64,000 bases of DNA from an uncultured Candidatus Saccharibacteria bacterium (GTDB lineage: Bacteria > Patescibacteriota > Minisyncoccia > Phycocordibacterales > DATDWN01). The position numbers and the translations under genes are program-made. The notes under the pieces were generated by a model that saw only the letters and a program-made list of their open reading frames with translations, ran no database searches and was not told the origin of the DNA. The number at the start of each line of letters is the position of its first letter. Position 1 is the stretch's first letter. Below are positions 8,476 to 34,305 of this stretch, piece after piece. Where the stretch lies: NCBI GenBank assembly GCA_964468795.1, contig CAYXWL010000001.1, forward strand, positions 147,587 to 211,586, given 5' to 3'.

Positions 8476-9378
8476 TTATTCGTGCTCGGAAACTATTTGT
8501 CCTCCCAATGTTCGAAGCTCTCGCAAAGCAATCTTCTCCTGTTCGTCTTTTGGGGGTTCGCCTGGAATCTCTGTGCCTGGAGGATTTCCATGCCACTTGT
8601 AGTCGCGTTCCATGAAAGAAACACCTTTGCCTGGAATAGTTCTCGCAACTATTACGCTTGGGCCATCAAAGACAGCCTGCGCCCTGCCGATAGCGGAAAC
8701 TATTTCTTCGAATGAGTGTCCATTTATTTCCTCTGCATGCCAGCCAAAGCTTTCAAACTTGTGCACCACAGAATCTAAGGGCATAACATCTTCTGTGTAA
8801 CCGTCTATCTGAATATTATTCCTATCCACTATTGCAATTAAATTTCCAAGTCTCTCTTTACCTGCAAGCATTATTGCTTCCCAATTTTGTCCCTCATCAA
8901 GCTCTCCATCGCCCAAAAGACAATAAAAAAATCTATCTGAAGATTTGCCGTTATCCATTCTATCAGCGATAGCCATGCCCACCGCCTGAGAAAGACCTGA
9001 ACCAAGAGGACCTGAAGATGTTTCAAGCATTGGCAAGTATTCCCTGTGCGGGTGACCCTGAAGTCTTGAACCAAATTTTCTCAGAGTTAATAGTTCTGAA
9101 ACAGGAAAATACCCAGCATGTGCCATAGTTGCATACAAAACTGGATTTATATGTCCGTTTGAAAGTATGAGCCTATCCCTATCTTTCCAAAAAGGGTCTT
9201 GAGGATTGTGGCGCATTATAAAAAAGTACAACGCTGTGAAAATATCTGCCATACCAAGGGGTCCTGCCGAGTGGCCTGAACCGGCAGAAACAAGCATTTC
9301 TATTATTGAAATCCTTATCTCGCGCGCTTTTTCTTCGAGGAATTTTATTTTCTCATCAGTGAGATTGTTTGCCATCAA
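8476..9378 (-). CDS. tktA: transketolase, N-terminal (TPP-binding) subunit
   Basis: GDG…E…N TPP-binding motif (CLLGDGELDEGQNWEAIM); adjacent to tktB. Confidence 0.85.
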   Translation of the reverse strand: MMANNLTDEKIKFLEEKAREIRISIIEMLVSAGSGHSAGPLGMADIFTALYFFIMRHNPQDPFWKDRDRLILSNGHINPVLYATMAHAGYFPVSELLTLRKFGSRLQGHPHREYLPMLETSSGPLGSGLSQAVGMAIADRMDNGKSSDRFFYCLLGDGELDEGQNWEAIMLAGKERLGNLIAIVDRNNIQIDGYTEDVMPLDSVVHKFESFGWHAEEINGHSFEEIVSAIGRAQAVFDGPSVIVARTIPGKGVSFMERDYKWHGNPPGTEIPGEPPKDEQEKIALRELRTLGGQIVSEHE

Positions 9379-9426
9379 AATAATTATACCCTACACGCAG
9401 GCAATAACAATATAATTGTTCAGATT

Positions 9427-10095
9427 TTAAAAAGAGAGTTCGTTATAAGCCTCTTCTGGGCTTTGAGATTCCAATATTGCTGATCCTGAAATAAGCTTGT
9501 TTGCCCCTGCTTCTACTAGAATGTCCTTGGTTTCCATGTTTACACCGATATCAATTGCAATTATTTTTTCTGGATATTTTTCTCTAAGAATTTTTATTTT
9601 TTCTATTGCAGATTCATCCAGCTCTACTCCATGGTTGCCCAACGCATTGCTTCCCATCACTTGTATGAAATTCGCTATTCCAGCGACTTCTTCCAGCCTT
9701 TCAACATCGGTCCCAGGTTTTATAGCTACCCCGATTGAAACTTCGTTTTTATCGCAAATTTCTTTTATTTTTCGAAAATCAGAAATTGTTTCAATGTGAC
9801 AGACAACTGCAGATATTCCAGTATGAACCCAATCAAGCAAAACTTCCTCTGGCTTTTCTACCATAAGGTGCAATTCTACATCCACATCCTCCCATTTTGG
9901 CCAGCCAACCTCTTCACTTTTGAGTTTTTCAAAATATTCCTTATCCTGTCCGTTGTATGGCCAAGTTTTTGTCCTTGTAAAAACTCCATCGGAAATATCT
10001 ACCTGAACAGTGTCGGCGAAAGCAGAAACCGTTGAAATCTCTTCTTCAAGCTGGGATTTGTTAAATGGAATGACAGCTGGTACTACTTTTATCAT
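9427..10095 (-). CDS. rpe: ribulose-phosphate 3-epimerase
   Basis: Rpe-like TIM barrel (…DVELHLMVEKPE…, …ISDGVF…). Confidence 0.75.
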   Translation of the reverse strand: MIKVVPAVIPFNKSQLEEEISTVSAFADTVQVDISDGVFTRTKTWPYNGQDKEYFEKLKSEEVGWPKWEDVDVELHLMVEKPEEVLLDWVHTGISAVVCHIETISDFRKIKEICDKNEVSIGVAIKPGTDVERLEEVAGIANFIQVMGSNALGNHGVELDESAIEKIKILREKYPEKIIAIDIGVNMETKDILVEAGANKLISGSAILESQSPEEAYNELSF

Positions 10096-17303: not shown

Positions 17304-17545
17304 TATATTTTACCTAGTCTTTATTTTAAAACTGTAAGGCGACTAGCTCTCTCCTTTTCCCCGCTTGCGCACGAAAACCTATGAGAAACTTACATTAGCA
17401 ATATTATATCACTAAAGTAGATGAGAAGTCAATGAAGATTTTAAGGAGCTCTACGTAGCCACAATTACAGCTAAAAGTGGATAAGTACCGCTATTTTATT
17501 TGATTCCCTAAAGTCTACAGGTGTAAAATTATGAAAGGAGGGTCC

Positions 17546-17752
17546 ATGACGGTTCACGACCTCGACCCCAGCGTTCTCCCCCCACTTCTCTACATCTGGA
17601 CCTCTATGGGCCAGGAAACAATGTGCCACCACGACTACTTCAGAGGCATGCGCACTGATGACAGTGGCAACATGTACCTGGGATCAGCAAAGGTCTACAG
17701 AATCGAGGAGGCTAACGGTTCCTCGAGATGCAGTTTCTGCCCTCGCCAGTAA
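17546..17752 (+). CDS. hypothetical small Cys-containing protein (GC-rich, GGAGG RBS)
   Basis: About 58% GC ORF preceded by AAAGGAGGGTCC-ATG; no homology recognised; followed by a GC-rich hairpin. Confidence 0.3.
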   Translation: MTVHDLDPSVLPPLLYIWTSMGQETMCHHDYFRGMRTDDSGNMYLGSAKVYRIEEANGSSRCSFCPRQ

Positions 17753-17757
17753 CAAAG

Positions 17758-17785
17758 AAGAGCCCCGGCTACAACCGGGGCTCTT
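17758..17785. terminator. GC-rich hairpin (terminator-like)
   Basis: aagagccccgg-ctacaa-ccggggctctt between convergent genes. Confidence 0.4.
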
Positions 17786-17788
17786 AAC

Positions 17789-18472
17789 TTATTTAACTGT
17801 AACTTTTTTCATTACTACAGGACTTACAGGCATATCGTTTGGCCCAGTCTTCACATTTGCAATTGTATCAACTACATCCTGGCCGGAGACGACCTTCCCA
17901 AAAATCGTGTAATTATGCGGAAGCTGGTTATCTTCATGCATTATGAAAAACTGGCTTCCGTTCGTGTTTGGTCCTGCGTTGGCCATTGCAACAACTCCCC
18001 GTTTGTATCCCTGAACATACGAAGGCGTATTTGGATCAAGCTCGTCAGCAAATGTGTAGCCTGGTCCACCTGTTCCATTGCCTTTTGGATCTCCGCCTTG
18101 AATCATAAAACCCTTTATAACCCTGTGAAATGTAAGACCGTTATAGAACCCTTTATTAGCCAAGGTAACAAAATTGCTTACTGTCTTTGGGGCATCATTG
18201 TCGTATGTCTCGATGACTATTTTCCCGTAATTGGTTTCGATGGTGATCATGTGTGATTTTTTATTGTTAGTTGTTGTTACTGTAGAAGTACTGTCTTGCG
18301 TAGTGTTGCCCAAAACATTTTCTGATTTTGTACTAGATGCAGTGCTTGTACTGTATGTATAGCTCGTATCTACCAAGGAGAAATCTTTGTTTGGAGCCTT
18401 GCCAGATAAAAAATAATATAAGCCGACTGAAGCAAGACCGACTAAGACAATGCTGATTATTATATTTTTCAT
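17789..18472 (-). CDS. cyclophilin-type peptidyl-prolyl cis-trans isomerase, membrane-anchored
   Basis: N-terminal TM, Ser/Thr-rich linker, cyclophilin core (HRVIKGFMIQGGDP…GTGG). Confidence 0.85.
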   Translation of the reverse strand: MKNIIISIVLVGLASVGLYYFLSGKAPNKDFSLVDTSYTYSTSTASSTKSENVLGNTTQDSTSTVTTTNNKKSHMITIETNYGKIVIETYDNDAPKTVSNFVTLANKGFYNGLTFHRVIKGFMIQGGDPKGNGTGGPGYTFADELDPNTPSYVQGYKRGVVAMANAGPNTNGSQFFIMHEDNQLPHNYTIFGKVVSGQDVVDTIANVKTGPNDMPVSPVVMKKVTVK

Positions 18473-18619
18473 AATTTAAATATTGTATAGAAACATTATG
18501 AAGCAGGCTTAAAATATTGTCTATTTTCTCAAATAATATTGAATATTGACTTTTTTTTAAAATAGGTTAGTATTGGCCTCTGTATCCCAGATTCCCTGGG
18601 AGGTTCTTTGGGAGGAAAG

Positions 18620-19483
18620 ATGAGACTCAAGTTTGTAATGAAAGTTCTCGCTCTGTTTTTGCTCGTTGTCCTCGTGGACATGAGCCGAGCTGAAGCGACC
18701 GGCATCGACGTGAACGTCTTCACTGCACTGGCACCCAACGCGTACGGCTCGCCGAGCTTTGCGGGCTGGCAGGCGAACGCCGTGACCTCGATGGAAAACG
18801 GCGGGGCCTCTCAGGGCACTGCCGGCACACCGACGTACTTCGAGACTGTCTCGAACATTACGTCGGATCAGGCCATCGTCACGGGCTTCCCGTCATGGAT
18901 GGGATCAGCTGACCCGGGCACGGTCTACGGCCCCGCGTTCGCAAGCGAACTCGGCAACCGCATGACGTTCCCTCTCTGGGTGAACGGCAATGGTAACCAG
19001 TTCGCAATTGGCGACCTCGGATTCGACGCAACCAGCACGGATCCGTTCAACGCACTTGCGTTCTCGTTCGCGCCTGGCGGGTACAACTACTCGTCGGCGT
19101 ACGTCGGACTCGATTACGGTGCTGACGGTGTGAAGGGCACGGCGGATGACAACTGGATCACGAGCGGCTCGAACACCCAACTCGTCAACGAGCTTTACGG
19201 CCGTGGCAGTGGCAATTCGTTTGCTGCCTACTGCCCGCTCTGCAGTCTCTCGAATCAGCAGACCGCAATCAACGATGCTGCGGCATATCCGGGAACGCCG
19301 TTCACGTTCACAGGTATGTACTACCTGTTGTCCGGGAACCAACGTCTCGGACAAGGATCAGCAACCTTCAATATCGGAGTTCCCGGTGGTGAAGGTACGG
19401 CGCCTGTTCCCGAACCGGCATCAATAGTGCTTCTGGGCACTGGCCTCCTCGGCACCTCGTTCCTTCGTCGCAAGAAAAGCTAA
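18620..19483 (+). CDS. PEP-CTERM sorting-signal protein (about 60% GC, compositionally foreign)
   Basis: Signal peptide, Gly/Ala/Thr/Asn-rich body, C-terminal VPEPASIVLLGTGLLGTSFLRRKKS (PEP motif + TM + basic tail); GGGAGGAAAG-ATG RBS; start taken at the second ATG (18620) because of the RBS. Confidence 0.7.
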   Translation: MRLKFVMKVLALFLLVVLVDMSRAEATGIDVNVFTALAPNAYGSPSFAGWQANAVTSMENGGASQGTAGTPTYFETVSNITSDQAIVTGFPSWMGSADPGTVYGPAFASELGNRMTFPLWVNGNGNQFAIGDLGFDATSTDPFNALAFSFAPGGYNYSSAYVGLDYGADGVKGTADDNWITSGSNTQLVNELYGRGSGNSFAAYCPLCSLSNQQTAINDAAAYPGTPFTFTGMYYLLSGNQRLGQGSATFNIGVPGGEGTAPVPEPASIVLLGTGLLGTSFLRRKKS

Positions 19484-19500
19484 GACGCAGGAACCACGCT

Positions 19501-19537
19501 ATGGCGTGCATCCCTCAGGGATGCACGCCATTTTTCA
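19501..19537 (+). terminator. rho-independent terminator of the PEP-CTERM gene
   Basis: 14-bp GC-rich stem atggcgtgcatccc-tca-gggatgcacgccat followed by TTTTT. Confidence 0.7.
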
Positions 19538-19592
19538 TATCCAGACAAAAAATTACAACTACGTTTTATATGTGCGGGATACTGGAATATTG

Positions 19593-19664
19593 TGCGATCG
19601 ATGGGAATCGAACCCATACCCTATGCTTGGGAAGCACAGATTCTACCACTAAACCACGATCGCA
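19593..19664 (-). tRNA. tRNA-Gly (anticodon CCC)
   Basis: Cloverleaf folded by hand: 7-bp acceptor stem, TTCGATT T-loop, anticodon loop TTCCCAA. Confidence 0.7.
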
Positions 19665-19846
19665 TGTGTCTCCTCCATACATTAGCAGTGCACTTTCTGG
19701 ATATAATATCGCCTGACTCAATTATATCTCAAAAAGTTCTTCGTTGGGTCCCAACCCAACTTCAGCCATGGGAAGGAGTATCATGCAACTCAAACAATCC
19801 CGCTTTGACGAATATCATACAACACTTTAATCTATGTATAAATAAC

Positions 19847-19933
19847 GGAGAGTTGGCAGAGTGGTCTAATGCGCCGCACTCGAAACGCGGTTGGGAGCAA
19901 TCCCTCACAGGTTCAAATCCTGTACTCTCCGCA
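19847..19933 (+). tRNA. tRNA-Ser (anticodon CGA), class II with long variable arm
   Basis: GGAGAGT acceptor stem, anticodon loop CTCGAAA, long variable arm, T-arm ACAGG-TTCAAAT-CCTGT, 3' ACTCTCC-G-CA. Confidence 0.7.
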
Positions 19934-19977: not shown

Positions 19978-20913
19978 TTACGCCCCGCACAATGACTTTA
20001 ATTCTTTCAAATCTGTTACAGTCGGCTTATCATTGTATCCGTTGTTAAGCCTATACATAATCGCCTTTGGATCATCAACGTGTTCAAGACCCAGTGCGTG
20101 TCCCAGCTCATGAGCCAAAACTCTGACCAGTTTTGATCTGTTATCAAACTGATAGACATCTATTTCCTCACCAGAAATATCGCTTTTGAACAGACCCTCA
20201 TCAAACTCATCACCCAAATTATCCCCGATGGCGTTGTAAACTCTGACGCTTTCATTCACATTTGTAGCCACTTTATTTATTTGCGAAGCTTGTGAATTTA
20301 ATTCCGAAATTTTTCTATTCAGGTCAGATTGCATAGAAGATAGCGAGGCCATTTCAGAATTCAGATAGCTTTTTTCATTGCTAAGCCTAGCATAGGTTGA
20401 CTTGTCGGCACCTCCTTGGGCATTTACTCTTTGAACTTCAGCATCGTATTCTGCTTTTCTTTGATTGAAAGAATTTAACCTAGATTGGAAAACAGCTTTG
20501 GCCGATACGTATTCGGAATTTAAAGAATTATATTTTGCTACAAGCTGGCTATACTCTGATTTTGAATCTTTTACAGCACTTCCGACCTGTTGCAATTGCT
20601 GAGTTGATGCCTGCCTACCATCGTATATTAGATTTATTTTAAGATGGCCTTTTGATGTAAGCTCGAAGAGATTTCTACCGGCAGGCTTTTCCCAAACTGC
20701 CTCGGCCTCTTTCAAAGCTGATGCAAATTCTTCCCGTGATAATCCAAATCTCGTATCAAATTTTTGAATGCTGTACTCTATTGGCGATCTGCAAGGCAAG
20801 TACCTGCTTTTCATTTGATAATAGACCACTGACAGAGGGTCCCAGAATACATACAATACAATGAAGAAAATAACCAAGCTTACGATGTTTCCAAAGTTTT
20901 TATTCATCAACAA
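19978..20913 (-). CDS. membrane-anchored coiled-coil metzincin (matrixin-like Zn metalloprotease)
   Basis: N-terminal TM, long coiled coil, C-terminal HELGHALGLEH zinc-binding motif. Confidence 0.7.
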   Translation of the reverse strand: MLMNKNFGNIVSLVIFFIVLYVFWDPLSVVYYQMKSRYLPCRSPIEYSIQKFDTRFGLSREEFASALKEAEAVWEKPAGRNLFELTSKGHLKINLIYDGRQASTQQLQQVGSAVKDSKSEYSQLVAKYNSLNSEYVSAKAVFQSRLNSFNQRKAEYDAEVQRVNAQGGADKSTYARLSNEKSYLNSEMASLSSMQSDLNRKISELNSQASQINKVATNVNESVRVYNAIGDNLGDEFDEGLFKSDISGEEIDVYQFDNRSKLVRVLAHELGHALGLEHVDDPKAIMYRLNNGYNDKPTVTDLKELKSLCGA

Positions 20914-21650: not shown

Positions 21651-21926
21651 ATTGGGTCAGTACCCCAGGATATAATATTTCACTTCGCTCATATTATATC
21701 TCAATCGGGCTTCGAATCTCACACAGAGCAATAACATTGCTCTGCTCTATCCTCCTTGTAAAAATTTCATTTTTTGCGGAGGGTATTAGACGAAGTTAGA
21801 ACCTCGTTAATGCTTTCAGATTACACTAAATTCAGCATTGTTAAAAGATGGTAAAAGAAAAATGGGCAAGCAACTTGATGCTCGCCCATCTAGGTTTTAG
21901 TCGAAGACTTTATTAAAGAAAGGGGT

Positions 21927-22739
21927 TCAGTGGTTAGCTGAACCCAGAACCATTTGAAATGCTCTCTTAAGATACAATCGAACCTTTTCGAGGTTAAGCT
22001 TGTCATTTTCGTCCCGGAGCTTTCCTTCGGCGTCAATCGATAGATTAGGAAATTCTTTGACCAACGGCTCGATTAAGCCCAGAGTTTCGCAACACAAACC
22101 GCCAGCGATGCCAATTCCCATTTCCGGGTAATCTCCTCTGACTTCACGCAGGTATTTTGTACCCTTGTTTTGGTCGAATGGTTGGCCTTTGCCACCGCTT
22201 GGGTCGATAAGAACCGCATCAACTAGCCAAGAGCAACAAGCTCTGTGGTCGTAAATCAAATGAATCAAACCTCCGAGATGACCAAGACCGTCAACCTCTG
22301 CGAGAACCCTTCCTCCCATTTGCACGACCAGAAACTTGTCGGGATGGGAGTCTTGGTAATTTCGCAATGCCGTTGCTTCTGGCCATCTAACATTGAGTTG
22401 AAAACCGTCAAAGTTCCCAGACCCAACCAGCTCGGTAATTTCGTAGAGTTCGTTTTGAAGTCGGTCGTGGTGGTCCGTGCTGTAATGAATCAGATTTAAT
22501 GCTCTTTCATTTTTCACGAATATTCCAGACACATCTTCCTTTTTCGGGTATCTGCCTGGATATTTATTGGTCATACCTGCCAGAGTTTTCGAACTCATCA
22601 GCACACCGACCATAAGACGATGTGTAGGTTTTTCTGGAACCATGTTCAACGCTTCAACCACCTCGGCGTTGGACATAAATCCAGTAATCCCTATGTACGG
22701 CCCCGTTTTGGCGACAACCCTGTTTCTTGTAAGGAACAT
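21927..22739 (-). CDS. TrpF-like phosphoribosylanthranilate-isomerase family protein (TIM barrel), orphan
   Basis: C-terminal half matches TrpF (VLIDPSGGKGQPFD…, IGIAGGL…, …IDAEGKLRDENDK…) and N-terminus has IGITGF; no other trp genes nearby; AGGAGG RBS; start taken at ATG 22739. Confidence 0.45.
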   Translation of the reverse strand: MFLTRNRVVAKTGPYIGITGFMSNAEVVEALNMVPEKPTHRLMVGVLMSSKTLAGMTNKYPGRYPKKEDVSGIFVKNERALNLIHYSTDHHDRLQNELYEITELVGSGNFDGFQLNVRWPEATALRNYQDSHPDKFLVVQMGGRVLAEVDGLGHLGGLIHLIYDHRACCSWLVDAVLIDPSGGKGQPFDQNKGTKYLREVRGDYPEMGIGIAGGLCCETLGLIEPLVKEFPNLSIDAEGKLRDENDKLNLEKVRLYLKRAFQMVLGSANH

Positions 22740-22809
22740 TAGAACCTCCTGAAAAGATACTGCAATATTTTCTGTAAAAAAGCAAAAAGAAAACCGAGTT
22801 GCCTCGGTC

Positions 22810-23346
22810 TTAATTTTTGAACAATTCTTCCATTTTATATAATGCCCGGACATTCGGCGGGTCGGTAACCAGCTCTCTGGCTTCGGCAATAGTCGCCCAT
22901 TTGGTGGTATGGAACTCTTTCGGGTCCACATTAAATTCCGAGCCATCAGTCGGAAACCGATACCACAAATCAAGGTGCTCCTTGCAAGGTTGGACCCGAT
23001 TGACGATTGGTGTAATGGTCAGAAGGAATGGTTTGATGTGGTTTTGAATGCGATTAGCCACCCCAAGCTCTTCTTCAATCTCTCGGTTTAAGGTCTGCAT
23101 CAAGGTCTCACCCCGGTCTATGTGACCGCCGGGTGAAAGCCATAGGCCAGATTTCTTGTGATGAACGATGAATACCTGCTTGGTATCTGGATTGTAAGGA
23201 AGAAAATAACAGCAGAAATGGCTCATGTTGCCGTCATCTCTGGTTAGCTGGCCTTGGGCCAGACGAGCTGACCAATAATCTGCAATAGCTTGATTGCAGA
23301 GCGATGGGTTGATTTCAGCCCCAATTTCAGTTTGTAAATTGTCCAT
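22810..23346 (-). CDS. Nudix hydrolase
   Basis: Nudix box GGHIDRGETLMQTLNREIEEELGV; start taken at ATG 23346 (GGAG RBS; the ORF-track start is TTG). Confidence 0.8.
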   Translation of the reverse strand: MDNLQTEIGAEINPSLCNQAIADYWSARLAQGQLTRDDGNMSHFCCYFLPYNPDTKQVFIVHHKKSGLWLSPGGHIDRGETLMQTLNREIEEELGVANRIQNHIKPFLLTITPIVNRVQPCKEHLDLWYRFPTDGSEFNVDPKEFHTTKWATIAEARELVTDPPNVRALYKMEELFKN

Positions 23347-23394
23347 GTTTTTCTCCAAAATTAAGATTACTCAAAATAATTTGTAATGCAACAT

Positions 23395-24375
23395 TTAAAA
23401 AAGAGAATTTCTAAACTCTTCAAAGTGTTCGGAAAGATTTTTAATGCGAGGGAAATCAGTTCCCAAAAACTTATCAACTCTGTGATTATCATTTAGATAA
23501 TGCTCACTTTCTGACCACAATCCGTGGATTGATTTGAGATAATATAACTTTAATCCTCTTGTTAACTCATCTTCGGATATGGGATAAGTTTTTCGGTATG
23601 AATCCATATATAATTTGGCACGGCTTATATTTTCTTCGCTCAAATCATCGCATAGAAAACTATACATCATACATTTAAATAATTCGTGTGTTCGTGGAGA
23701 ATAGCTGGTTTTTTCAAAGTCAAAAACCCACGAAATTTTATCGTTGCCACCAAAGAAAACATTATGGTCGGTGTAATCTCCGTGAATAAGATGGTCGCTT
23801 GATAAGTTCAAATCCTCATAAACAACTGTGTTCTCTTGAACCAGCTGTTTTTTCAGATTAAGGCTTTTCAAAGCCGATTCATCAAAATCGTCAAAATTTG
23901 TTTTCTTTTGAATTTCGTTTATGACCAGTTCTATTTTAGCCAAGCTTTTTTCCTTGTTCCATGGTTTAAATTTGCCTGAAACAGGCAACTTTGCATCTCT
24001 TCCTAACAAATGGATTTTGCCAAGCATTTCTCCAAGCGAGACAATAGCGGTTTCTGTTAATTCCTTTCCGCTCAACTGCTTATCCAACACAAAAGGAAAA
24101 AGTGCATAGCAACCATCTTCAAATGAAAAATATGTGCTTCCTTCTTTGTTGGTTATAGGAAGAATTACAGGAATATTACCGTCAGAAAAATATCTTTTTA
24201 CAGATTGAATTTCCTCCACCTTTTCTTTGGCATCTGGAGCGTATTGTTTGAGAAAATACCTCGTATCTCCATCAATGAGAATATGGTTTTCAGAAAGTGA
24301 ACCCTTCTTCACTTTTTCGTGATATTGAAGGTTTAGACCATATAAGTTGCTGGTATGTTTTAGCAGAGTATCCAT
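23395..24375 (-). CDS. APH/ChoK/FN3K-fold small-molecule kinase
   Basis: Brenner motif HGDYTDHNVFF and downstream VFDFE (DFG-like), 326 aa. Confidence 0.65.
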   Translation of the reverse strand: MDTLLKHTSNLYGLNLQYHEKVKKGSLSENHILIDGDTRYFLKQYAPDAKEKVEEIQSVKRYFSDGNIPVILPITNKEGSTYFSFEDGCYALFPFVLDKQLSGKELTETAIVSLGEMLGKIHLLGRDAKLPVSGKFKPWNKEKSLAKIELVINEIQKKTNFDDFDESALKSLNLKKQLVQENTVVYEDLNLSSDHLIHGDYTDHNVFFGGNDKISWVFDFEKTSYSPRTHELFKCMMYSFLCDDLSEENISRAKLYMDSYRKTYPISEDELTRGLKLYYLKSIHGLWSESEHYLNDNHRVDKFLGTDFPRIKNLSEHFEEFRNSLF

Positions 24376-24376
24376 A

Positions 24377-24778
24377 TTATTTCAAAATTTGAGGTATGAA
24401 ATCACGAGAAATTTTTCTGACTTGGGCCGAGGTTTTTCCTAAAATAGCAGATTTCATCAAGCGGTGTAAGCCATCTAAAATAAGCCAGCGACCTTTGTTT
24501 TCCATTATGTCTATGGGATGCACAAGGTCAGCTTTCATTGTTCTTTCGTATTCCTCCTTATGTGCTTCTGGATTATCTATAACTTCCTGTGGTTTGAGAT
24601 TATAAACCCCATTTTCCCAAAGGAAAGGAATATCAAAATGCCAAGTCAGCTCATCTGTACTGATTTCCTCTGGCCCCACTTCCAAAGCCCAGACTTTTTC
24701 TTCACTCCAGTCAAAATCAAAACCAACATCCTTGATGATTTGTGGAATTTCATTTGAATTGTTTTTTATTTCTTCCAT
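24377..24778 (-). CDS. hypothetical protein with ParB/Srx-like motif
   Basis: 133 aa; C-terminal …GRWLILDGLHRLMKSAILG… resembles the ParB/sulfiredoxin-fold DGxHR signature; translationally coupled to neighbours (TAATG overlap). Confidence 0.3.
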   Translation of the reverse strand: MEEIKNNSNEIPQIIKDVGFDFDWSEEKVWALEVGPEEISTDELTWHFDIPFLWENGVYNLKPQEVIDNPEAHKEEYERTMKADLVHPIDIMENKGRWLILDGLHRLMKSAILGKTSAQVRKISRDFIPQILK

Positions 24779-25311
24779 TATTTTTTATAAAATCCTGTAT
24801 CGGGGCAGGTTATCTGAATGAAAGCGTTTCGCAACGCCTCTTCCAAGCTGACTTCCCGTAGGATTGTTCCACCAGAATATGTGCCCCAAGTATCATTCGG
24901 CAGTTTTCCATATTCTTCTTCAATAATTGTCATCACATCGGAGTGTTCCATTTTGAGTTCGTCCATTTTCTTGAGAATAAAGTCTGGGACCTTTAATCCG
25001 CTTGAATAGCCGTAATACTCCTTGTCCTCAGTAATAATAACAGCCCAAGCTTCCTCATATATGTGCCCATATCGCTCTATAAGGCCACTTTCAAGACCTA
25101 TATAGTAATTTGCATCAGAGTGGCGAGATTTACTGTCCAACGCTCTGTTTTTTGCTCCATCAAAAGTTTGTTTGTCCCACGGAGTGTCTGGCATCAGCGA
25201 TTTGGCTCCGTAACTTTGTATTGAAACATCTTTATCGGCAAAAAACTGCTTGATGATTTTTTCAGCAATTTTTATTTTTCTATCACTTGATGAGCCGATT
25301 ACGAATTTCAT
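24778..25311 (-). CDS. YjjX/DUF84-like non-canonical NTP pyrophosphatase
   Basis: MKFVIGSSSDRKIKIAEKI…GAKNRALDS…YYIGLESGL pattern matching inosine/xanthosine triphosphatase (YjjX) family. Confidence 0.55.
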   Translation of the reverse strand: MKFVIGSSSDRKIKIAEKIIKQFFADKDVSIQSYGAKSLMPDTPWDKQTFDGAKNRALDSKSRHSDANYYIGLESGLIERYGHIYEEAWAVIITEDKEYYGYSSGLKVPDFILKKMDELKMEHSDVMTIIEEEYGKLPNDTWGTYSGGTILREVSLEEALRNAFIQITCPDTGFYKK

Positions 25312-25871
25312 TTTAGTGTCAAATGTTTTTTAAGTTTTTCCAATGCCAATTTTCTCATACTGAATGAGTTTTTTTCTTCGGCAGTCAGTTCACCAAAAGT
25401 TTTGGAATAGCCCTCTGGCTGGAATATAGGGTCCCAACCAAATCCAGTGCCTCTTGGTGATACAGTCGTTCCTTTTACTGCACCTTCAAAAAATTCAATG
25501 TTTCCGTCTAAATCAGAATGACCAATAATCGTTTTTGCTTCTGCGTTAAAATTTCCGAAAACAGTAATCATTTTATACAACCCATCGTTCCCGACAGTTT
25601 TCATAAACCATTTTATAAGAGGACCTGGCAAACCATTCATTGCTTCAAAATACAAAGATGTGTCCTCAACAATAAACTCACCCTTGTGATGTTTCTGGGC
25701 TTCTTCCAGCTTTGCCTTGATGATTTTGTGGGCATCAATTTCCTGTATTTCGGGAAGGTCAATATCCAATCCTTCTATAAAGTCGCCAAGAATTGCCTGA
25801 ACTTCTGCTAGCTTGCCTTTATTGCCAGTGAGAAAATAGAGTGGCGTCATATTAAGAATAATATAACACAA
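25308..25871 (-). CDS. RdgB/Ham1-family dITP/XTP pyrophosphatase
   Basis: LTGNKGKLAEV, EDTSL, NGLPGP, FGWDPIF motifs of Ham1/Maf-like ITPases; probable true start at the MTPLYF ATG (about 25850); 4-nt overlap with the downstream gene. Confidence 0.8.
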   Translation of the reverse strand: MCYIILNMTPLYFLTGNKGKLAEVQAILGDFIEGLDIDLPEIQEIDAHKIIKAKLEEAQKHHKGEFIVEDTSLYFEAMNGLPGPLIKWFMKTVGNDGLYKMITVFGNFNAEAKTIIGHSDLDGNIEFFEGAVKGTTVSPRGTGFGWDPIFQPEGYSKTFGELTAEEKNSFSMRKLALEKLKKHLTLK

Positions 25872-25903
25872 AAATTCATTTTACCCCATTATTCATATTT
25901 TGA

Positions 25904-26221
25904 TTAAGGTAAAAAATTTATTCTTATATAATCCCAAAAACTATATGCATAATCAATTATTTCTACACCAGTACTAGTAGGAGGTTGACCACATTTTGGA
26001 CATAGAAGTGCTTTATCGCTATCATATCTTATTCTACAAGGCTCACAGTAGCAGAGGTTGATACGAGTAGGCTTGTGTCGCATTTTTAAGTCTCTGAAAT
26101 GCTCATATGTATATTTAGACTCAAATTTTAGACCGCATACAGGGCAATTTTCTAGTTTCAATTTATTCTTGAACTCGTCTCTGCAACTAACACATGCTTG
26201 TATAAATCCGATTAGTTCCAT
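25904..26221 (-). CDS. double zinc-ribbon protein (four CxxC pairs), hypothetical
   Basis: C11xxC14, C26xxC29, C58xC60xxC63, C74xxC77. Confidence 0.4.
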   Translation of the reverse strand: MELIGFIQACVSCRDEFKNKLKLENCPVCGLKFESKYTYEHFRDLKMRHKPTRINLCYCEPCRIRYDSDKALLCPKCGQPPTSTGVEIIDYAYSFWDYIRINFLP

Positions 26222-26273
26222 ATTTTGCTATTATGCGTTTAATAATTGAAGGATAAGAAATGGTAGGGTTAAA

Positions 26274-26837
26274 TTATTTTGTAAACTTAAGTGAGGAAAT
26301 GATTATTCCTTCTTCTGTCATTGATTGGGTTCCATTCTCATCCCACATCAAAGAAATGACTATGCGATATTTATTATTTGGTGTATTTACGACAACCCAA
26401 GTACCGCCATCCATAGTAATCGCTTCTTGCCCGTCAATATTTAAAACATTGTAACCCTCTGAGAGGTCTTTCTTCGCATCATTTTTTAGCCATTCAAGAG
26501 GTGTAACACCTTTATTATTTTTAGACATCTCTATATGTATTCCACCATATGGGTCGCTTTTGCTTTCTAAAATTGATTTTGGCCAGATGTATAACTCAAC
26601 GGGTTCAAACTTATTTTCCACAAACATATGAGGCGGATACTGAAATGAAAAACCAACATCGCTTTTATAGGTCAGAAAACTTTTTTCATATTCATAATAT
26701 TCGTCTGAACCAACAATACTAGGTATGGGATTATGAGTTACTTCAGCGATTTTTGTCTCTTTATGTCTACTGTAGTAAAAAGTAAATGATATTACGCATA
26801 GAATGATAACAATTGATATAAGTATTTTTTTATTCAT
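26274..26837 (-). CDS. membrane-anchored secreted hypothetical protein
   Basis: N-terminal TM/signal anchor (MNKKILISIVIILCVISF); start moved to ATG at 26837 to avoid overlap with res. Confidence 0.4.
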   Translation of the reverse strand: MNKKILISIVIILCVISFTFYYSRHKETKIAEVTHNPIPSIVGSDEYYEYEKSFLTYKSDVGFSFQYPPHMFVENKFEPVELYIWPKSILESKSDPYGGIHIEMSKNNKGVTPLEWLKNDAKKDLSEGYNVLNIDGQEAITMDGGTWVVVNTPNNKYRIVISLMWDENGTQSMTEEGIIISSLKFTK

Positions 26838-26866
26838 ATTTTGATTCAGTATGCAACTTATTACTT

Positions 26867-29095
26867 CTACAACTCCAAATGTTCCCAGTCTGTCCAATCA
26901 TTCTCTTTCAAATTTTTACCATCGCCTTTGTAGACCATCCAACGGCCAGAAAAGTGGCTAGGGTCTGTATTAGCAACAATACCACCAAAGAGTTTCTGCT
27001 TCTTGCCAGCTCTGGCTGTGTAGGCCACCAAACCGCTTGATTTGGCTCCAAAATCGGCTAAATAGGCTCCGTGAGGGTCAAAAAGGCCGATACTGCCATC
27101 TTTCATCATTACCACGAAATCAACATAGAACGGAGCCATTTCATCGCCTAATTTATAAGGCACGGCAAAGAAGGTCCCGTCTCTTTCTCCGTTTTTAAAC
27201 CACCATTCCACCTTGTTATTTTTCTTATCCAAAAATTCAATAAACGCTTTTTCAGACTGCCAGCGTTTATCTGAAAAGAATGGCTCCATAACAGATTTAT
27301 TGACCTCCATTTCTTCGTAATTTTCGCCGAAGACCATTTTCTCTGGCACATCCCATTCACTTTGGACCAGCTCGTTGTTGCGTTTTTCCGTAGACGAGAT
27401 ATAGGTGATTTTGGCATCGTCAATGACTGCTTCAAAAAGAGATTTGTTATCCTCGCTCAAAACAGTGTTGATTATCTCTTGGAATTTTTCCAATTTCGGC
27501 ATACCAAGCTCTTTATCAAAAAACTGGTAGATTGACTCTTTGAGACGACCTACTGACCTATCTTCTGGATGAAATGGTGAAAGGTTTCGGTAAATGAAAT
27601 AGTCAAATAGTCTCTGTAAATCAGCATCACTTCCCATATCAACGAGCACCGTAGCTTTAATGTGTTCACCAGCGATAGTGTCTATGTTTTCTGTTCGCCA
27701 ATCGGAAATGAAAGCCGAATGGACTTTCTGATTTTTCAGTTTGATTTTATCCGCCAGTTTTGACTGTTTGGCTTTCTCCAAAAAGAGAGAAGTGAAAAGT
27801 GGGCTCAAGCGGGTCTGCTCACGATGGCGTTTGCTATGGACCGATGAAAGATTTATCGGCTCATATTTTGGCGACCTGTTGCTGATATGGATAACCACAT
27901 AATCCCGCCCGATGTCTTCCTTGATTTCAATGCCTTCAAGGTTGGTGTAAACATAAGCATAATTGAGCATATCGTCCTTGTAGTAGCCGATTTCTGGTTC
28001 TGGCACACGCATAATCCTGCCAATGGTTTGAATAGAGAAAATGGGACTGGACCATTCTCGGAAAAGGACCAAAATTTGAGCTCTTGGGCAATCCCAACCC
28101 AGAGCGATAGCTTGTTTGAAAATAAGGACTTCTACTTCGCTGTCGTTGCGTTTGATATTGTCGGAATTTTCTTTATTCTCTGCCAAGTAGAAAGCTAGCT
28201 TGCCATTTTTGGTGGTGATATTGTGTTTGTCTGCCAGTATCTTTACAAGCATTTCTTGTCTGTCATCATCACCTTGACCACGCCTGTCTGGAAGCTGGAT
28301 TAGGAGAAGTGGATTAACTGAAATTTTACCCGCTTTGTATTTCTTGGCTAGGTCTTCTCGTTTTTTTAAGGCAATGTCCAAAATAACTTCATCAGAGCTG
28401 TTAGCCAGTTCGCTTTTGACTATATCTGAATTGTTTTTCTGGACAACATTTTTGAAATTCTCATTGAGGACCACCGCTTTCTTTATCATCTCCTCGGCTT
28501 TGACCTCGGCAATGTCCACGCTAACAATCTTGTCTGGGTTAGCCATTACAGGAGTAGCGGAAACTTCAATAGTCAAATCCGGCTTGATAGCGGAAATAAG
28601 GTTTTGTGAGGTTTCTGCTTGAGCGTGGAAATGACTCTCGTCTATGATGAGAATAATTTTTCTGTCAGCTTCCCGTGTTCGGCTGATTATATTTGAAAGA
28701 TTGTTGTCTTGCTCGTTATCTCGTATGTAAATGTTGCCGTCCTGTCTGATACTTTCCCAGTTGAAAAAGAGAACCTCGTTTTCATCTATTTGCCTGTCGT
28801 TTAAGTCTTCAAAGAAAGAACATTCCATCGCCCGTGATTTTTCAAAATACAGCTCAATTTTTTCTTTGCTCTGCTCGTGGAGCTGACGAGGAGCGGTCCA
28901 GATGAATGAGCAAGGGGTATGTCTTTTGTCATCGGCAAATCTTGTTAGAAATTCAGCCACCATTATGGTCTTGCCCGAACCAGTAGGAGCTTTGAAAACT
29001 AGCTTTTTCCCATCACTAATTTTCAAAAGACGAACTGCATCATCTAGCAATTCTTGGGTATGTTCATCTTGATATGTTGTTAGCTTAAAAGCCAT
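26867..29095 (-). CDS. res: Type III restriction endonuclease Res subunit (SF2 helicase-like)
   Basis: Walker A KAPTGSGKT and DExH box IIDESH; immediately downstream of mod and translationally coupled (29097/29095). Confidence 0.7.
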   Translation of the reverse strand: MAFKLTTYQDEHTQELLDDAVRLLKISDGKKLVFKAPTGSGKTIMVAEFLTRFADDKRHTPCSFIWTAPRQLHEQSKEKIELYFEKSRAMECSFFEDLNDRQIDENEVLFFNWESIRQDGNIYIRDNEQDNNLSNIISRTREADRKIILIIDESHFHAQAETSQNLISAIKPDLTIEVSATPVMANPDKIVSVDIAEVKAEEMIKKAVVLNENFKNVVQKNNSDIVKSELANSSDEVILDIALKKREDLAKKYKAGKISVNPLLLIQLPDRRGQGDDDRQEMLVKILADKHNITTKNGKLAFYLAENKENSDNIKRNDSEVEVLIFKQAIALGWDCPRAQILVLFREWSSPIFSIQTIGRIMRVPEPEIGYYKDDMLNYAYVYTNLEGIEIKEDIGRDYVVIHISNRSPKYEPINLSSVHSKRHREQTRLSPLFTSLFLEKAKQSKLADKIKLKNQKVHSAFISDWRTENIDTIAGEHIKATVLVDMGSDADLQRLFDYFIYRNLSPFHPEDRSVGRLKESIYQFFDKELGMPKLEKFQEIINTVLSEDNKSLFEAVIDDAKITYISSTEKRNNELVQSEWDVPEKMVFGENYEEMEVNKSVMEPFFSDKRWQSEKAFIEFLDKKNNKVEWWFKNGERDGTFFAVPYKLGDEMAPFYVDFVVMMKDGSIGLFDPHGAYLADFGAKSSGLVAYTARAGKKQKLFGGIVANTDPSHFSGRWMVYKGDGKNLKENDWTDWEHLEL

Positions 29096-29096
29096 A

Positions 29097-30791
29097 TTAT
29101 TTTTTGAAAATACGCCTATATACCCGCAAAATAACTTCGGGTATCGGGGCTACTGTTACTTTTTCTTTGACATCTTCAAATTCTTCTTCAAAGGTGTCAT
29201 CGCCGAGAGAGAAAATGTAAACACTCCATTTTCCGCCAATTTTGGCGATGTCTTTTTTGAGAGACGAGATAGAACCTTCGTCAAAAAGAATGGCTGTATA
29301 TTGCTTTTCATTCTTGAAAATTTTTATGGCCATGGTTTCCTTCACTTCCTCAAAAGTGTTTTCTCTGACACAGAGCATCTCCGTAGCTTCTCTGGTTAGA
29401 GTCTCCTTGTTTTTATCGTTTGGCTCGGCTTCTACGAAAGCCGTGCGGAAGTATTTCAAATTGCTAGGTATGCCAGTTATATCTTTGTAATCTTTATGAC
29501 CAGCGATAACAGATTTAATTCGTGGATAGCATACTTCTGTTGCGATGCCATTTTCATTGTTGGTGCAGAGAATAAATTGGCGTAATCCGTTATCTCTTTT
29601 ATTTAGCAGTGAGACAGCGTGTCCAGTAGTTCCACTTCCAGCAAAAAAGTCCAAAATCACCGCATCCTTTTTATCTTTAGCTGTGGCTAATAGACATTCT
29701 TCAACCGCATATAATGACTTTGGGAAAGGAAACATTGTGCCAGTCAGCCCATTAACCATCTTTGAACCATACTCGTTTGCATCATATTTAGGTCCAACCC
29801 AAACAGTCTTATATGGAGCCTCATCTTTGGAGCGATATATTTCAAACCTGCCTTTAGAAGTCTTCTTTATGTGCAACTCTGAAATTATTTCTTCAACAGT
29901 ATTTCTTGAATAAGACCATTTCCTTTCAATACTGTTTATGTCTATAGGCCAAACCTCAAATACACCCTTTTTTATTTCAGTAGTTTGTTTTTTGGGATGA
30001 AATTTCTCATCTGCCACTTCGCCTACACCAATAATTTTTTCGCCAGATACTATAAATGGGTAAAAACAGGTTTTTGCTGTATGACGAGGGGAATTGCTTC
30101 CGTCAACTCTGAAATTTCTCACCAGAGTTTCTTCACGAAGTGCATTACTTATATATTTTTCCTTGGCATCTGGATAAACAAAAACAGCATACTCGTGATT
30201 ATATGAAAAATTTTTACCCTGAACTCCTCGGGGATTGTGAACCACTGAAATTGAATCAACTTTTTTGCCTACAAAAATTTGTTTAAGCAGGAGTACCAGA
30301 TTAGCGTGTTCGTTTTCATCAATGGCACAAATCAGACAACCATTCTTTTTCAAAAGATTTTTCGCAAGGACCAATCTTCTCTCCATCATGCTCAACCATT
30401 TGCTATGTCTGTATGAGTCATCTTTATCTACATAATTATTGTTATATTTCCAATTTTTTGCTCCCGTATTGTAAGGCGGGTCAATATAAATAACATCAAT
30501 CTTGCCTTTATGTGTGTAGTTTAATACAGAAAGAGCGTGGTAATTATCTCCTTCAATAAGTAGGTTTGTGGGGGTATTTTTATTTTTGAAAATATGCTTA
30601 TTTTTTACCTCTTTCAAAACAGGCAATTCAGTATTGCATTGCTCAACAACATCTTCTATCTTTTCCTCCCAAACCAATCCATATTTTTTGCGTTTTCGTA
30701 AACGCTCAATTTCTGCAACAAATTGCTCTTTGGTCCAATTACCATATTTATCTGTTTCCACCACAATAGGTGATTGTAATTTTTCAGGCAT
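29097..30791 (-). CDS. mod: Type III R-M Mod subunit (beta-class N6-adenine DNA methyltransferase)
   Basis: DPPY motif IV (IYIDPPYNTG) precedes motif I (LDFFAGSGTTGHA), the beta-class order typical of Type III Mod. Confidence 0.8.
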   Translation of the reverse strand: MPEKLQSPIVVETDKYGNWTKEQFVAEIERLRKRKKYGLVWEEKIEDVVEQCNTELPVLKEVKNKHIFKNKNTPTNLLIEGDNYHALSVLNYTHKGKIDVIYIDPPYNTGAKNWKYNNNYVDKDDSYRHSKWLSMMERRLVLAKNLLKKNGCLICAIDENEHANLVLLLKQIFVGKKVDSISVVHNPRGVQGKNFSYNHEYAVFVYPDAKEKYISNALREETLVRNFRVDGSNSPRHTAKTCFYPFIVSGEKIIGVGEVADEKFHPKKQTTEIKKGVFEVWPIDINSIERKWSYSRNTVEEIISELHIKKTSKGRFEIYRSKDEAPYKTVWVGPKYDANEYGSKMVNGLTGTMFPFPKSLYAVEECLLATAKDKKDAVILDFFAGSGTTGHAVSLLNKRDNGLRQFILCTNNENGIATEVCYPRIKSVIAGHKDYKDITGIPSNLKYFRTAFVEAEPNDKNKETLTREATEMLCVRENTFEEVKETMAIKIFKNEKQYTAILFDEGSISSLKKDIAKIGGKWSVYIFSLGDDTFEEEFEDVKEKVTVAPIPEVILRVYRRIFKK

Positions 30792-30794
30792 GAT

Positions 30795-30849
30795 GACTAT
30801 GAGTACCTACACCACATAATGTATCACAAAAATAGTGGTACTCATAGTC
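30795..30849. promoter_or_regulatory. C-box-like operator: perfect 13-bp inverted repeat GACTATGAGTACC…GGTACTCATAGTC
   Basis: Arms at 30795..30807 and 30837..30849 separated by 29 nt, in the mod / C-gene divergent region; GACT…AGTC symmetry as in known controller-protein operators; ends 38 nt upstream of the HTH gene. Confidence 0.45.
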
Positions 30850-30886
30850 CGTCGCCTTATAGACATCAGACCTCTAGGCTTAAGGC

Positions 30887-31108
30887 ATGAGCAAGAGTAG
30901 CCCCATTTTAAAGAAATTTGGAAAGCGAGTAATAGAACTCCGCTTACAAAAAGGCTTCACTTCCCAAATTGCTTTAGCTAATAAAGCCAATATGGACCGA
31001 ACCTATATTGGTGGCATTGAGCGAGGTGAAAGGAATATCTCCTTGGTTAATATTGAAAAGCTGGCAAAGACGCTTGGTATCAGTTTGGAAGAATTGTTCA
31101 GACTCTAA
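30887..31108 (+). CDS. XRE-family HTH protein, controller (C-protein)-like
   Basis: 73 aa, Cro/C1-type HTH (…QIALANKANMDRTYIGGIERGERNISLVNIEKLAKTLGISLEELF). Confidence 0.75.
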   Translation: MSKSSPILKKFGKRVIELRLQKGFTSQIALANKANMDRTYIGGIERGERNISLVNIEKLAKTLGISLEELFRL

Positions 31109-31139
31109 ACAAGGTGTATTCTTAAGTGAAAAGAACGCC

Positions 31140-32354
31140 ATGATTTCTAGCAATCTAGAACGCCATTTTCATAGCTTTATTGAGGAGACAAATCTTCTTA
31201 ATTTTTCTAAAGGTTTAGCCGAATATTTGGAGTATGTATTCAGTGTGCCAGAACTAAAAAATGTTTTTTCACAACAGCTCGGGGAAAGAAATGCTGATTA
31301 TGCAAAATTGAATGAGCTTGCTGAAAAAAATCTTGCTGAAATTAAGGAGGCAAAAACAAAACTTATTAAATGTTTAAAAAAGAGAAAAATTTATATTGAT
31401 GACTTGAATCGTATTTTTACTCACCCCCACAACACAGGAAGGAATTTTTTTGAAGAGCTGGATGCTTTTGAAAAAGGAGATGGTTTGTATTCTAGTATGT
31501 CATTGGCTGATGTAATTGATAATTATCTTTTTGATATGGCAGTAAATTTACTCAATGCTGGTTATCAAGAAGATGTTGAGGAATTTTTAGCTAGACCGGA
31601 CGATTATACTGTGAATAAGGTATGTCGTAATGATTATATTATGATTGATGGTCATCCAGGGTCTTTTGTGTTCTCTAGGGCATATTTTGAGCGTCAAAAT
31701 ATGAAAAAGTTTATTGAACAAGGTAGAGTATTAAAAACTTGGGGAGAATTTGAAAAACTTTATCAATTTAGACAAGGATATAAAGAAAGCTTGGGTATAC
31801 ATGACCCTATGAAAGATTGGGAGCATGGCCCGGGAGAATTTGGTATTGATGAGGATTTGATATATATAGCCAGAATCCATAATGAATTGAATAACTTGGT
31901 AAAAAAACATGGACCATTTCCGCGAGAAGATAACCCCTTGGAATATTTGTCGCAGAGTAAATTTGTCCAACCAGTCAAAACGGTTCACAATATTTTGATG
32001 CTTGTCGCATCAAGTAACAAAAAGGAAGAAAAAAATGAATCCGGTCTTTGGATTTCTAAAAATAAGACCACAGGTGAGTATTATTTTGATGATAACAAAA
32101 TCCATTTTCCTAGCCCAAATGCAAAATATGTAAAAATTTTTGAAACCGTGTATGAAATTATCCCGAAAGGTGGTCGCATTTCTTATTCCCAAATTACTAA
32201 ATATAAGAAGTCAGAAGTGCAGAGGGCGTTGACTGGAGAAAATGCCAACTTTTTTCATTATGTTAAATCGGCAAGACGTACTCCCCAGAAAGGCATCCCA
32301 CTTTTTCATGCATCAAGCGACGGAAAAGAGCTGATTTTCAATAATCAGCGTTAA
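31140..32354 (+). CDS. hypothetical 404-aa protein downstream of the C-protein gene (candidate restriction/abortive-infection effector)
   Basis: No recognisable motifs; start taken at ATG 31140 (the longer ORF-track start overlaps the HTH gene); followed by terminator 32384..32412. Confidence 0.5.
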   Translation: MISSNLERHFHSFIEETNLLNFSKGLAEYLEYVFSVPELKNVFSQQLGERNADYAKLNELAEKNLAEIKEAKTKLIKCLKKRKIYIDDLNRIFTHPHNTGRNFFEELDAFEKGDGLYSSMSLADVIDNYLFDMAVNLLNAGYQEDVEEFLARPDDYTVNKVCRNDYIMIDGHPGSFVFSRAYFERQNMKKFIEQGRVLKTWGEFEKLYQFRQGYKESLGIHDPMKDWEHGPGEFGIDEDLIYIARIHNELNNLVKKHGPFPREDNPLEYLSQSKFVQPVKTVHNILMLVASSNKKEEKNESGLWISKNKTTGEYYFDDNKIHFPSPNAKYVKIFETVYEIIPKGGRISYSQITKYKKSEVQRALTGENANFFHYVKSARRTPQKGIPLFHASSDGKELIFNNQR

Positions 32355-32383
32355 CTCATCTCATCTCGTTTGTGGATTATCTG

Positions 32384-32412
32384 AAAAATCACCGCTCCAG
32401 TGGTGATTTTTT
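32384..32412 (+). terminator. rho-independent terminator
   Basis: aaaatcacc-gctccagt-ggtgatttt followed by a T-run. Confidence 0.6.
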
Positions 32413-33177: not shown

Positions 33178-33190
33178 TCTTATCACTATA

Positions 33191-34288: not shown

Positions 34289-34305
34289 TATAATTAAGTA
34301 TCACT

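Follow-up and report, generated by a model that had tools for sequence, protein, structure and literature searches.

The DNA analysed here, a stretch of 64 kb from an uncultured Candidatus Saccharibacteria bacterium (assembly GCA_964468795.1, contig CAYXWL010000001.1, positions 147,587 to 211,586 of the forward strand) that is referred to below as the window, carries at 18620..19483 on its plus strand an open reading frame (ORF) with an ATG start, encoding a protein of 287 aa with the C-terminal end VPEPASIVLLGTGLLGTSFLRRKKS. Judged by its sequence, this protein belongs among the PEP-CTERM proteins and shows all features of the tag: its C-terminus passes the curated cut-offs of both Pfam PF07589 (29.1 bits, cut-off 20.7) and TIGR02595 (28.5 bits, cut-off 16), in agreement with an earlier reading of the letters without database searches (the sequence-only reading), which had recognised a PEP-CTERM sorting signal in this place. 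PEP-CTERM proteins are treated as a signature of bacteria with an outer membrane, an exosortase and exopolysaccharide (EPS) genes. The gene is real and intact, it is foreign to its host and absent from the host's relatives, and its family has been acquired repeatedly by bacteria of the Candidate Phyla Radiation (CPR).

A GC-rich PEP-CTERM gene in an AT-rich genome

With a GC content of 0.588 and a third-position GC (GC3) of 0.694 the ORF departs strongly from the window as a whole (GC 0.399), with z = 7.7 for GC when compared with all windows of the same length outside the ORF and z = 6.8 for GC3 when compared with the 47 other window genes of at least 150 aa. The values to compare are 0.40 for GC and 0.37 for GC3, and among the real genes of the window only the PEP-CTERM gene exceeds 50% GC. 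The step is abrupt (from ~18640 to ~19535), amounts to ~19 points and is one gene wide; the sequence-only reading had estimated some 20 GC points above the neighbours, close to the measured 58.8% against 39.9%. Within the gene, the signal-peptide region has 45% GC and the mature part 60%. A replacement of the 5′ end or signal peptide by host DNA was considered as the reason, but a lower GC in this region is also found in several non-CPR copies and is not diagnostic.

A sharp 19-point GC step limited to one gene might also point to an artefact of assembly or binning, in which a high-GC read or contig was joined wrongly to a CPR contig, and a mis-assembled contaminant had indeed been named beforehand as what could undo the observation. 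However, identical gene and flanks were recovered in at least six independent ENA and Logan assemblies (megahit, SPAdes, Logan) that stem from different runs and differ at 0-2 positions across as much as 12.8 kb. Because gene and flanks are 100% identical at the nucleotide level in at least six samples, mis-assembly is excluded, and with identical junctions in all of these assemblies and the same pattern in long CPR contigs of 55-245 kb, an artefact of any such kind is extremely improbable. The assemblies represent one clonal population in several datasets. The adjacent gene for a membrane-anchored cyclophilin peptidyl-prolyl isomerase (PPIase; 17789..18472, −) has hundreds of homologs at 60-72% identity, the named ones being from Parcubacteria, Zambryskibacteria, Minisyncoccia and Patescibacteria, and no PPIase closer than 72% was found outside the clone in 5.8 billion protein clusters. 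Neighbour genes of this kind are typical of a low-GC Parcubacteria-type CPR bacterium, which we take the host to be. We also considered dating the insertion through closer relatives, but at 72% identity the nearest non-clonal PPIase is too distant for this.

The promoter-like region, ribosome binding site and GC-rich terminator that the sequence-only reading had assigned to the gene were all recovered. A Shine-Dalgarno sequence, GGAGG, is located at 18611..18615 (+), 4 nt upstream of the ATG, and a candidate sigma-70-like promoter, TTGACT-16-TAGTAT (a consensus match only), at 18546..18573 (+), while an intrinsic terminator with a 14-bp stem (9 GC pairs), a 3-nt loop and a T-run (19501..19531, +) forms the right edge of the GC-rich segment. 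The AT-rich intergenic region (30% GC) between the divergent PPIase and PEP-CTERM genes holds a cluster of AATATTGnnTAT-like motifs (18479..18553, +), with five overlapping or adjacent copies in 75 bp; the motif occurs 26 times window-wide, where 10.3 are expected, and was not found in the same region of a relative with a syntenic locus (L078, see below). The cluster is possibly an operator array.

The protein begins with a predicted signal peptide (aa 1-26, MRLKFVMKVLALFLLVVLVDMSRAEA; 18620..18697, +) with a basic n-region and a hydrophobic core according to hydropathy, a helix at residues 2-21 in the AlphaFold2 (AF2) model and a predicted signal peptidase I site AEA-TG (cut after AEA); the family alignment begins at T27, just past it. 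The mature, extracellular domain (aa 27-262; 18698..19405, +) is a conserved module of ~230 aa around an Ig-like beta-sandwich core, modelled by AF2 with a pLDDT of 94.1 as an elaborated form of that fold, and a short Gly/Pro linker connects it to the tag. The latter (aa 263-287; 19406..19480, +) consists of V-P264-E-P266, a transmembrane (TM) helix A267-L282, the basic cluster RRKK (R283-K286) and the last residue S287, and AF2 places a helix at 268-286 within it. All 19 of the 19 invariant residues of the family are kept, and together with the Shine-Dalgarno sequence, the promoter-like site and the terminator they suggest that the gene is probably functional.

No Pfam or NCBIfam model covers the ~230-aa domain and its profile has no sequence match in the PDB. 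A word-indexed search gave 275 matches, and 646 representatives at 50% identity were found at E ≤ 1e-10 among 1.84 billion; a family of this size, confidently modelled in its fold but covered by none of the curated models, has no annotation so far and would lend itself to a description. Its members exchange their tags, which can be PEP-CTERM, PEPxxWA, VPLPA-like or VPDSG, or absent altogether. In giant proteins of 1,724-2,964 aa the domain occurs two to four times, together with Big_9, bacterial cadherin-like and He_PIG domains; elsewhere its partners are Ig-set, DUF11 or beta-helix domains. Because of this company of adhesin-type domains, the module may by association be regarded as one of extracellular adhesion or matrix. 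Conserved gene neighbours were not found across 60 non-CPR loci in native hosts. The members without a tag, from Verrucomicrobiota (L039-L060, e.g., L039 9959-11689), are 565-577 aa long and carry a conserved C-terminal extension of ~300 aa that ends in GSLFFRLKH and has no Pfam match, an alternative deployment of the same domain.

Homology to PepA, the flocculation protein that links exopolysaccharide to cells (PMC9850573), was considered and rejected. The full-length protein scores 17.4 bits with NF033554, far from the cut-off of 80; 42 of 62 family members match this model below the cut-off, and with the tag removed eight N-domains give no match. The resemblance is thus confined to the tag and the window protein is not a PepA member; with the PepA of Zoogloea and Aquincola it shares a similar size and the PEP-CTERM tag, and it differs outside the tag.

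Origin of the gene and the slot it occupies

The PEP-CTERM gene lies between two backbone genes, the PPIase gene on its left and a gene for an M10 metallopeptidase (19978..20907, −) on its right. It shares this interval with a tRNA-Gly(ccc) (19592..19663, −), 108 bp from the ORF, and a tRNA-Ser(cga) (19847..19932, +), both noticed in the sequence-only reading and both located by ARAGORN and Rfam. A comparison of orthologous loci in relatives, which that reading had called for, was made by a search for empty sites anchored on the lineage-specific M10 peptidase and on the PPIase. Three syntenic relatives, distant ones with PPIases 62-70% identical to that of the window (L078, L091 and L159), keep the backbone M10 ... 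PPIase-RRM-DUF192-RNR(-GAPDH) and lack the PEP-CTERM gene. In L078 the slot contains only tRNA-Gly and tRNA-Ser, with ~70 bp to the PPIase gene; in L091 it contains the tRNAs and a different, GC-richer insert of ~600 bp with a 159-aa lipoprotein-like ORF, and in L159 a DUF2914 gene, the tRNAs being absent. The M10-PPIase interval is therefore a variable slot in which each lineage may hold foreign cargo of its own, and only the lineage of the window has the PEP-CTERM gene there.

The phylogenetic position of the protein agrees with this. In the mature domain it is 70% identical to the homolog P0003 and to the copy of an Acidobacteria metagenome-assembled genome (MAG; L010), and at most 58% identical to any other CPR copy. 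The nearest homologs (63-70% identity) lie in contigs of 62-68% GC, where the GC of the gene equals that of its flanks, and the same holds for all 60 non-CPR genome loci examined. Composition, empty sites and phylogeny together show that the PEP-CTERM gene is foreign to its host. By the same sequence comparisons, the donor would be a high-GC, outer-membrane-bearing bacterium whose nearest relatives are of the Acidobacteria type.

How the gene entered is less evident. The sequence-only reading had seen in the tRNA genes a typical integration hotspot, but no support was found for integration targeted to them: the GC-rich segment consists of one gene and its terminator and contains no integrase, no transposase and no att repeat derived from a tRNA 3′ end, and the two recombinases of the window belong to a separate island of ~14 kb, which lies 12 kb away at a tRNA-Ser(gga). 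The other CPR copies do not adjoin a tRNA either (the nearest is a tRNA-Phe ~950 bp from the copy of L029), so that the idea of a tRNA hotspot fits the neighbourhood and not the mechanism. The only repeat that brackets the segment is a 10-bp direct one, ATTTTTCATA, unrelated to the tRNA, with its left copy (18464..18473) overlapping the start codon of the minus-strand PPIase gene and its right copy (19530..19539) doubling as the T-tail of the terminator. The two are identical at 10/10 positions and 1066 bp apart, and an equal length was reached in 14 of 500 shuffles; the repeat is AT-rich and at best a weak candidate for a microhomology scar or a target duplication. We infer that a single gene of ~0.9 kb from the high-GC, outer-membrane-bearing donor entered the slot between the M10/tRNA pair and the PPIase gene, probably by DNA uptake and illegitimate recombination rather than through an integrase. 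Uptake of free DNA is plausible, since competence genes are widespread in CPR: ComEC is reported for the majority of their MAGs and type IV pili for almost every one (PMC13293708).

A number of further observations concern the surroundings of the slot. The 14.1-kb island (21783-35896) contains a tyrosine integrase (33077-34288) and a large serine recombinase (34306-35925), the 3′ end of which overlaps the tRNA-Ser(gga) (35898-35985, −) that the island abuts. It is present in the assembly L002 and absent from the same-clone assemblies L001 and L003, where the junction is 21782|35897 with an 8-bp overlap, and resembles an integrative element carried by only some members of the population. Read from the M10 gene, the tRNA order is Gly (−), Ser (−) in the relatives (L078 6877-7053, L091 3252-3427) and Ser (−), Gly (+) in the window (19592-19932); the tRNA-Ser(gga) adjoins M10 in the relatives, and a 173-aa gene and the island intervene in the lineage of the window. 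From this gene order the M10/tRNA region appears as a local rearrangement hotspot. A co-transfer of tRNA-Gly with the PEP-CTERM gene was also considered and found no support: the three tRNAs of the window are about equally diverged from those of the relatives (62-69%) and no non-CPR tRNA-Gly is closer. With a divergence as great as that of the two tRNA-Ser genes, tRNA-Gly(ccc) is probably native.

The insert of L091 (3428-4028, from tRNA-Ser(cga) to the PPIase gene) has a GC of 0.46-0.50 compared with 0.39 and a hairpin of its own. On the other side of the PPIase gene of the window, the spacer to the RRM gene (17304-17788) measures 485 bp with 49% GC, compared with 145-168 bp in L078, L091 and L159; it contains an ORF of 68-73 aa (17531-17752, +) that is accepted by gene callers, its Rfam matches are all sub-threshold noise, and the spacer possibly represents another small insertion, close to that of the PEP-CTERM gene. 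Far from the slot, a non-coding stretch at 54560-54920, within a divergent intergenic region, reaches ~55% GC in a 40% GC genome. It has no Rfam match even at E up to 1, RNA folding gave z = -1.9 (+) and -1.3 (−), and either a structured RNA not yet described or a further piece of foreign DNA could explain it.

The family in other CPR genomes

The family is present in seven other CPR genomes, two Minisyncoccota MAGs (L007, L009), three Candidatus Taylorbacteria MAGs (L033, L034, L041) and two genomes labelled Saccharibacteria (L015, L029). The sequence-only reading had called such a gene unexpected in a reduced CPR-like genome; it was right in so far as the gene is foreign to a CPR-type host, but the family is carried by these seven others as well. 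The copies occupy six different sites, with flanking genes common only to L007 and L009. In AT-rich hosts the GC of the copy exceeds that of the genome (copy/host 0.58/0.42, 0.55/0.41, 0.54/0.41, 0.57/0.50 and 0.50/0.44), the GC bump being gene-sized in L015, L033 and L034 and free of mobility genes in the AT-rich hosts, while in L007 and L009, with host genomes of 55% GC, the copy blends in.

In bootstrapped neighbour-joining (NJ) trees the CPR copies were monophyletic in 0/100 replicates and the window copy grouped with another CPR copy in 0/100; L007 and L009 grouped with a gammaproteobacterial copy in 99/100, and L033 and L034 formed a pair in 62/100. Because the CPR copies are polyphyletic in these trees, the sequences indicate at least four independent acquisitions of the family by CPR. 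Between L007 and L009, the gene has a dN/dS of 0.126 and a dS of 0.52, the latter within the range of the neighbouring housekeeping genes (0.29-0.58), and these substitution rates show that in one CPR lineage the family has been inherited vertically and under purifying selection.

This vertical inheritance could also be taken as a sign that the gene is an old resident, which entered a CPR ancestor once and has remained GC-rich for intrinsic reasons such as amino-acid composition or selection on the mRNA. The pairing of L033 with L034 points in the same direction: the two copies (L033 9971-10825, L034 9902-10828) are 55% identical, lie in different loci and both have 0.54-0.55 GC in hosts of 0.41 GC. 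Either they were acquired separately from related donors, or GC does not ameliorate as expected; a single acquisition would mean that the copies have stayed ~14 points above their host through much divergence, contrary to simple amelioration. For the family as a whole we regard a single old entry as very improbable, given that CPR monophyly was never recovered and the window copy never joined another CPR copy, that the insertion sites are six different ones, that the three syntenic relatives lack the gene and that GC3 is raised and not GC1/2 alone.

At the other extreme, the gene of the window might be a neutral passenger that was inserted by accident not long ago, lacks expression or use and is bound to decay. 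It is known from one clonal population only, its GC is unameliorated, and it is a single gene without a partner whose processing enzyme is apparently missing. But the ORF is intact with all invariant residues, it has a strong Shine-Dalgarno sequence, a promoter-like site and a terminator, and the family was captured independently by at least four CPR lineages with a dN/dS of 0.13 in one of them; streamlined CPR genomes would, moreover, be expected to shed useless DNA quickly. A mere passenger thus seems quite unlikely.

In L015 a gene for a 215-aa, VTT/DedA-like protein with six TM segments (8977-9624) begins where the PEP-CTERM copy has its stop codon; since its GC resembles that of the host, it did not arrive together with that copy. 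Another VTT-domain gene is located at a distance of 2.7 kb from the homolog of the donor-side contig L162, which has a second PEP-CTERM protein next door, and the occurrence of such a gene near both copies is probably a coincidence. In L007 (3480-9786) genes for a cohesin, a dockerin-like protein and a 1,629-aa Big/PKD/fn3 surface protein are inserted so as to separate the PEP-CTERM gene from that of a 355-aa membrane protein. The close relative L009 does not have them, and they represent another gain of surface proteins at the same spot.

Exosortase, C-terminal tag and surface display

No exosortase was found in the 64-kb window, as the sequence-only reading had said; its only protein with at least eight TM segments is an MFS transporter and its 4-TM protein is HtpX. 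Nor was one found among the polytopic proteins encoded within 10 kb of the seven other CPR copies, where the candidates proved to be MFS, DoxX-like, VTT/DedA-like, PMT, MurJ, PrsW, MatE and amino-acid permease proteins instead. There is one PEP-CTERM-like ORF in the window and one per CPR locus. No EPS locus was noticed in the window, in which not every gene was scanned against family libraries.

The tags themselves are preserved to different degrees. Those of the window protein, L015, L007 and L009 pass TIGR02595 and that of L029 passes VPDSG-CTERM, while those of L033, L034 and L041 reach no curated tag model and keep the TM helix and the basic tail. The PEP motif is intact in the window copy, L015, L007, L009 and L034. 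A relaxed constraint on the motif in CPR was considered, with non-canonical forms in 2 of 9 CPR tags compared with 7 of 140 others; this is suggestive only (Fisher p = 0.09).

A canonical system, in which the genome encodes a possibly divergent exosortase and further PEP-CTERM substrates outside the window and the protein is cleaved and then attached or released as in diderms, would account for a tag that passes curated cut-offs, for the motif intact in five copies and for a tag conserved under purifying selection in L007/L009, and only part of each genome has been seen. We nevertheless consider it unlikely. Beside the failure to find an exosortase in the 64 kb of the window or within 10 kb of the seven other CPR copies, a single PEP-CTERM-like ORF per locus contrasts with a median of eight tagged proteins per genome in a system that strictly co-occurs with EpsH, all species of which have an outer membrane and EPS genes (PMC1569441). 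Three CPR tags fall below every curated model with helix and basic tail kept, an outer membrane has been proposed to be absent in Patescibacteria (PMC12102498), and our literature search found no paper that connects PEP-CTERM or exosortase with CPR. With partner enzyme, number of paralogs and envelope type in doubt, the gene cannot be filed as part of a PEP-CTERM/exosortase system.

We consider it fairly probable that the gene encodes a captured adhesin-type protein which is held on a monoderm surface by its uncleaved C-terminal helix. Expression would start from the AT-rich, host-like upstream region with its strong Shine-Dalgarno sequence, and the product would be exported by Sec, its mature part forming a beta-sandwich module as in bacterial adhesins. 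In the donor an exosortase would cut the tag and the protein would pass on toward the outer membrane and the exopolysaccharide layer; in the CPR cell the tag would most likely stay uncleaved. A PEP-CTERM protein that is not cleaved would be retained by the inner membrane through the helix and the basic cluster at its C-terminus (PMC1569441), and in the same way helix and RRKK could fasten the domain to the outer side of the cytoplasmic membrane. With only one membrane and an uncleaved tag, the domain would lie on the outer face of that membrane, which is equivalent to surface display.

Several points weigh against this interpretation. The exosortase search covered 64 kb of the source genome and ~20 kb around each of the other CPR copies, and an exosortase gene may well lie apart from the genes of its substrates. 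A perfect PEP motif, in the window protein and four other CPR copies, could mean that an enzyme still reads the tag, and not that the transfer was recent. The trees are NJ trees only, and the CPR labels of five loci are those of the submitters. The function of the domain is read from its modelled fold class and its domain co-occurrence only, and the best donor-side match is only 63-70% identical, which points to an unsampled donor.

Compared with the exosortase (EpsH, XrtA) substrates of diderms (PMC1569441), the window protein is alike in its signal peptide, in a novel domain without known homology and in the tripartite tag, and its gene likewise forms a one-gene unit, equipped with an upstream region and a terminator of its own. 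It is unlike them in its CPR host, thought to be without an outer membrane, in having no exosortase or EPS locus in view, in its single copy and in its foreign composition. The nearest precedent for a tag without the enzyme is Chlorobium tepidum, which has two PEP-CTERM proteins and no EpsH, read as remnants of the system (PMC1569441); the likeness lies in a tag without detectable exosortase, whereas the window gene is a gain and not a remnant, and its family, unlike the Chlorobium case, has been gained repeatedly by CPR and is under purifying selection in one lineage. In its proposed Sec export and surface display of a beta-sandwich module it resembles C-terminally anchored proteins of monoderms (LPXTG/sortase substrates and TM-anchored adhesins), although it has no LPXTG and its proposed anchor is a membrane helix rather than peptidoglycan transpeptidation. 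By analogy, it would work most like a C-terminally anchored monoderm surface adhesin. A transfer of type IV secretion systems from monoderm hosts to CPR/Patescibacteria has been proposed (PMC12102498), and with such host-to-symbiont transfer our case shares the gain of envelope or surface functions from other bacteria. It differs in that a single small gene was taken up, from diderm donors, repeatedly and independently, and with a sorting tag for a machinery that the recipient seems to lack.

The gene itself belongs to a known class, that of PEP-CTERM proteins; the repeated capture of its family by CPR is unexpected and a new result. An intact and selected PEP-CTERM family in several CPR without an exosortase in view leaves two options, either a processing enzyme that has gone unrecognised in CPR or the use of the tag as a simple anchor in a monoderm envelope. 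Going further, and only tentatively, one can imagine that CPR episymbionts have time and again taken one particular PEP-CTERM matrix or adhesin protein from the diderms on which, or among which, they live and use it without an exosortase, the tag serving as a plain anchor that displays a host-type module and lets the symbiont bind to the exopolysaccharide layer of its host or pass as part of it. If this were true, the gene would mark the host range (here an Acidobacteria-like host), and a sorting signal would have taken on a new role on crossing envelope types.

To our knowledge, little has been established, apart from type IV pili, on the means by which most CPR hold on to their hosts. An adhesin-type surface protein that derives from hosts and has been captured more than once offers a concrete candidate for such attachment, and one open to testing; the clade of its nearest donors could point to the host of an uncultured CPR population.

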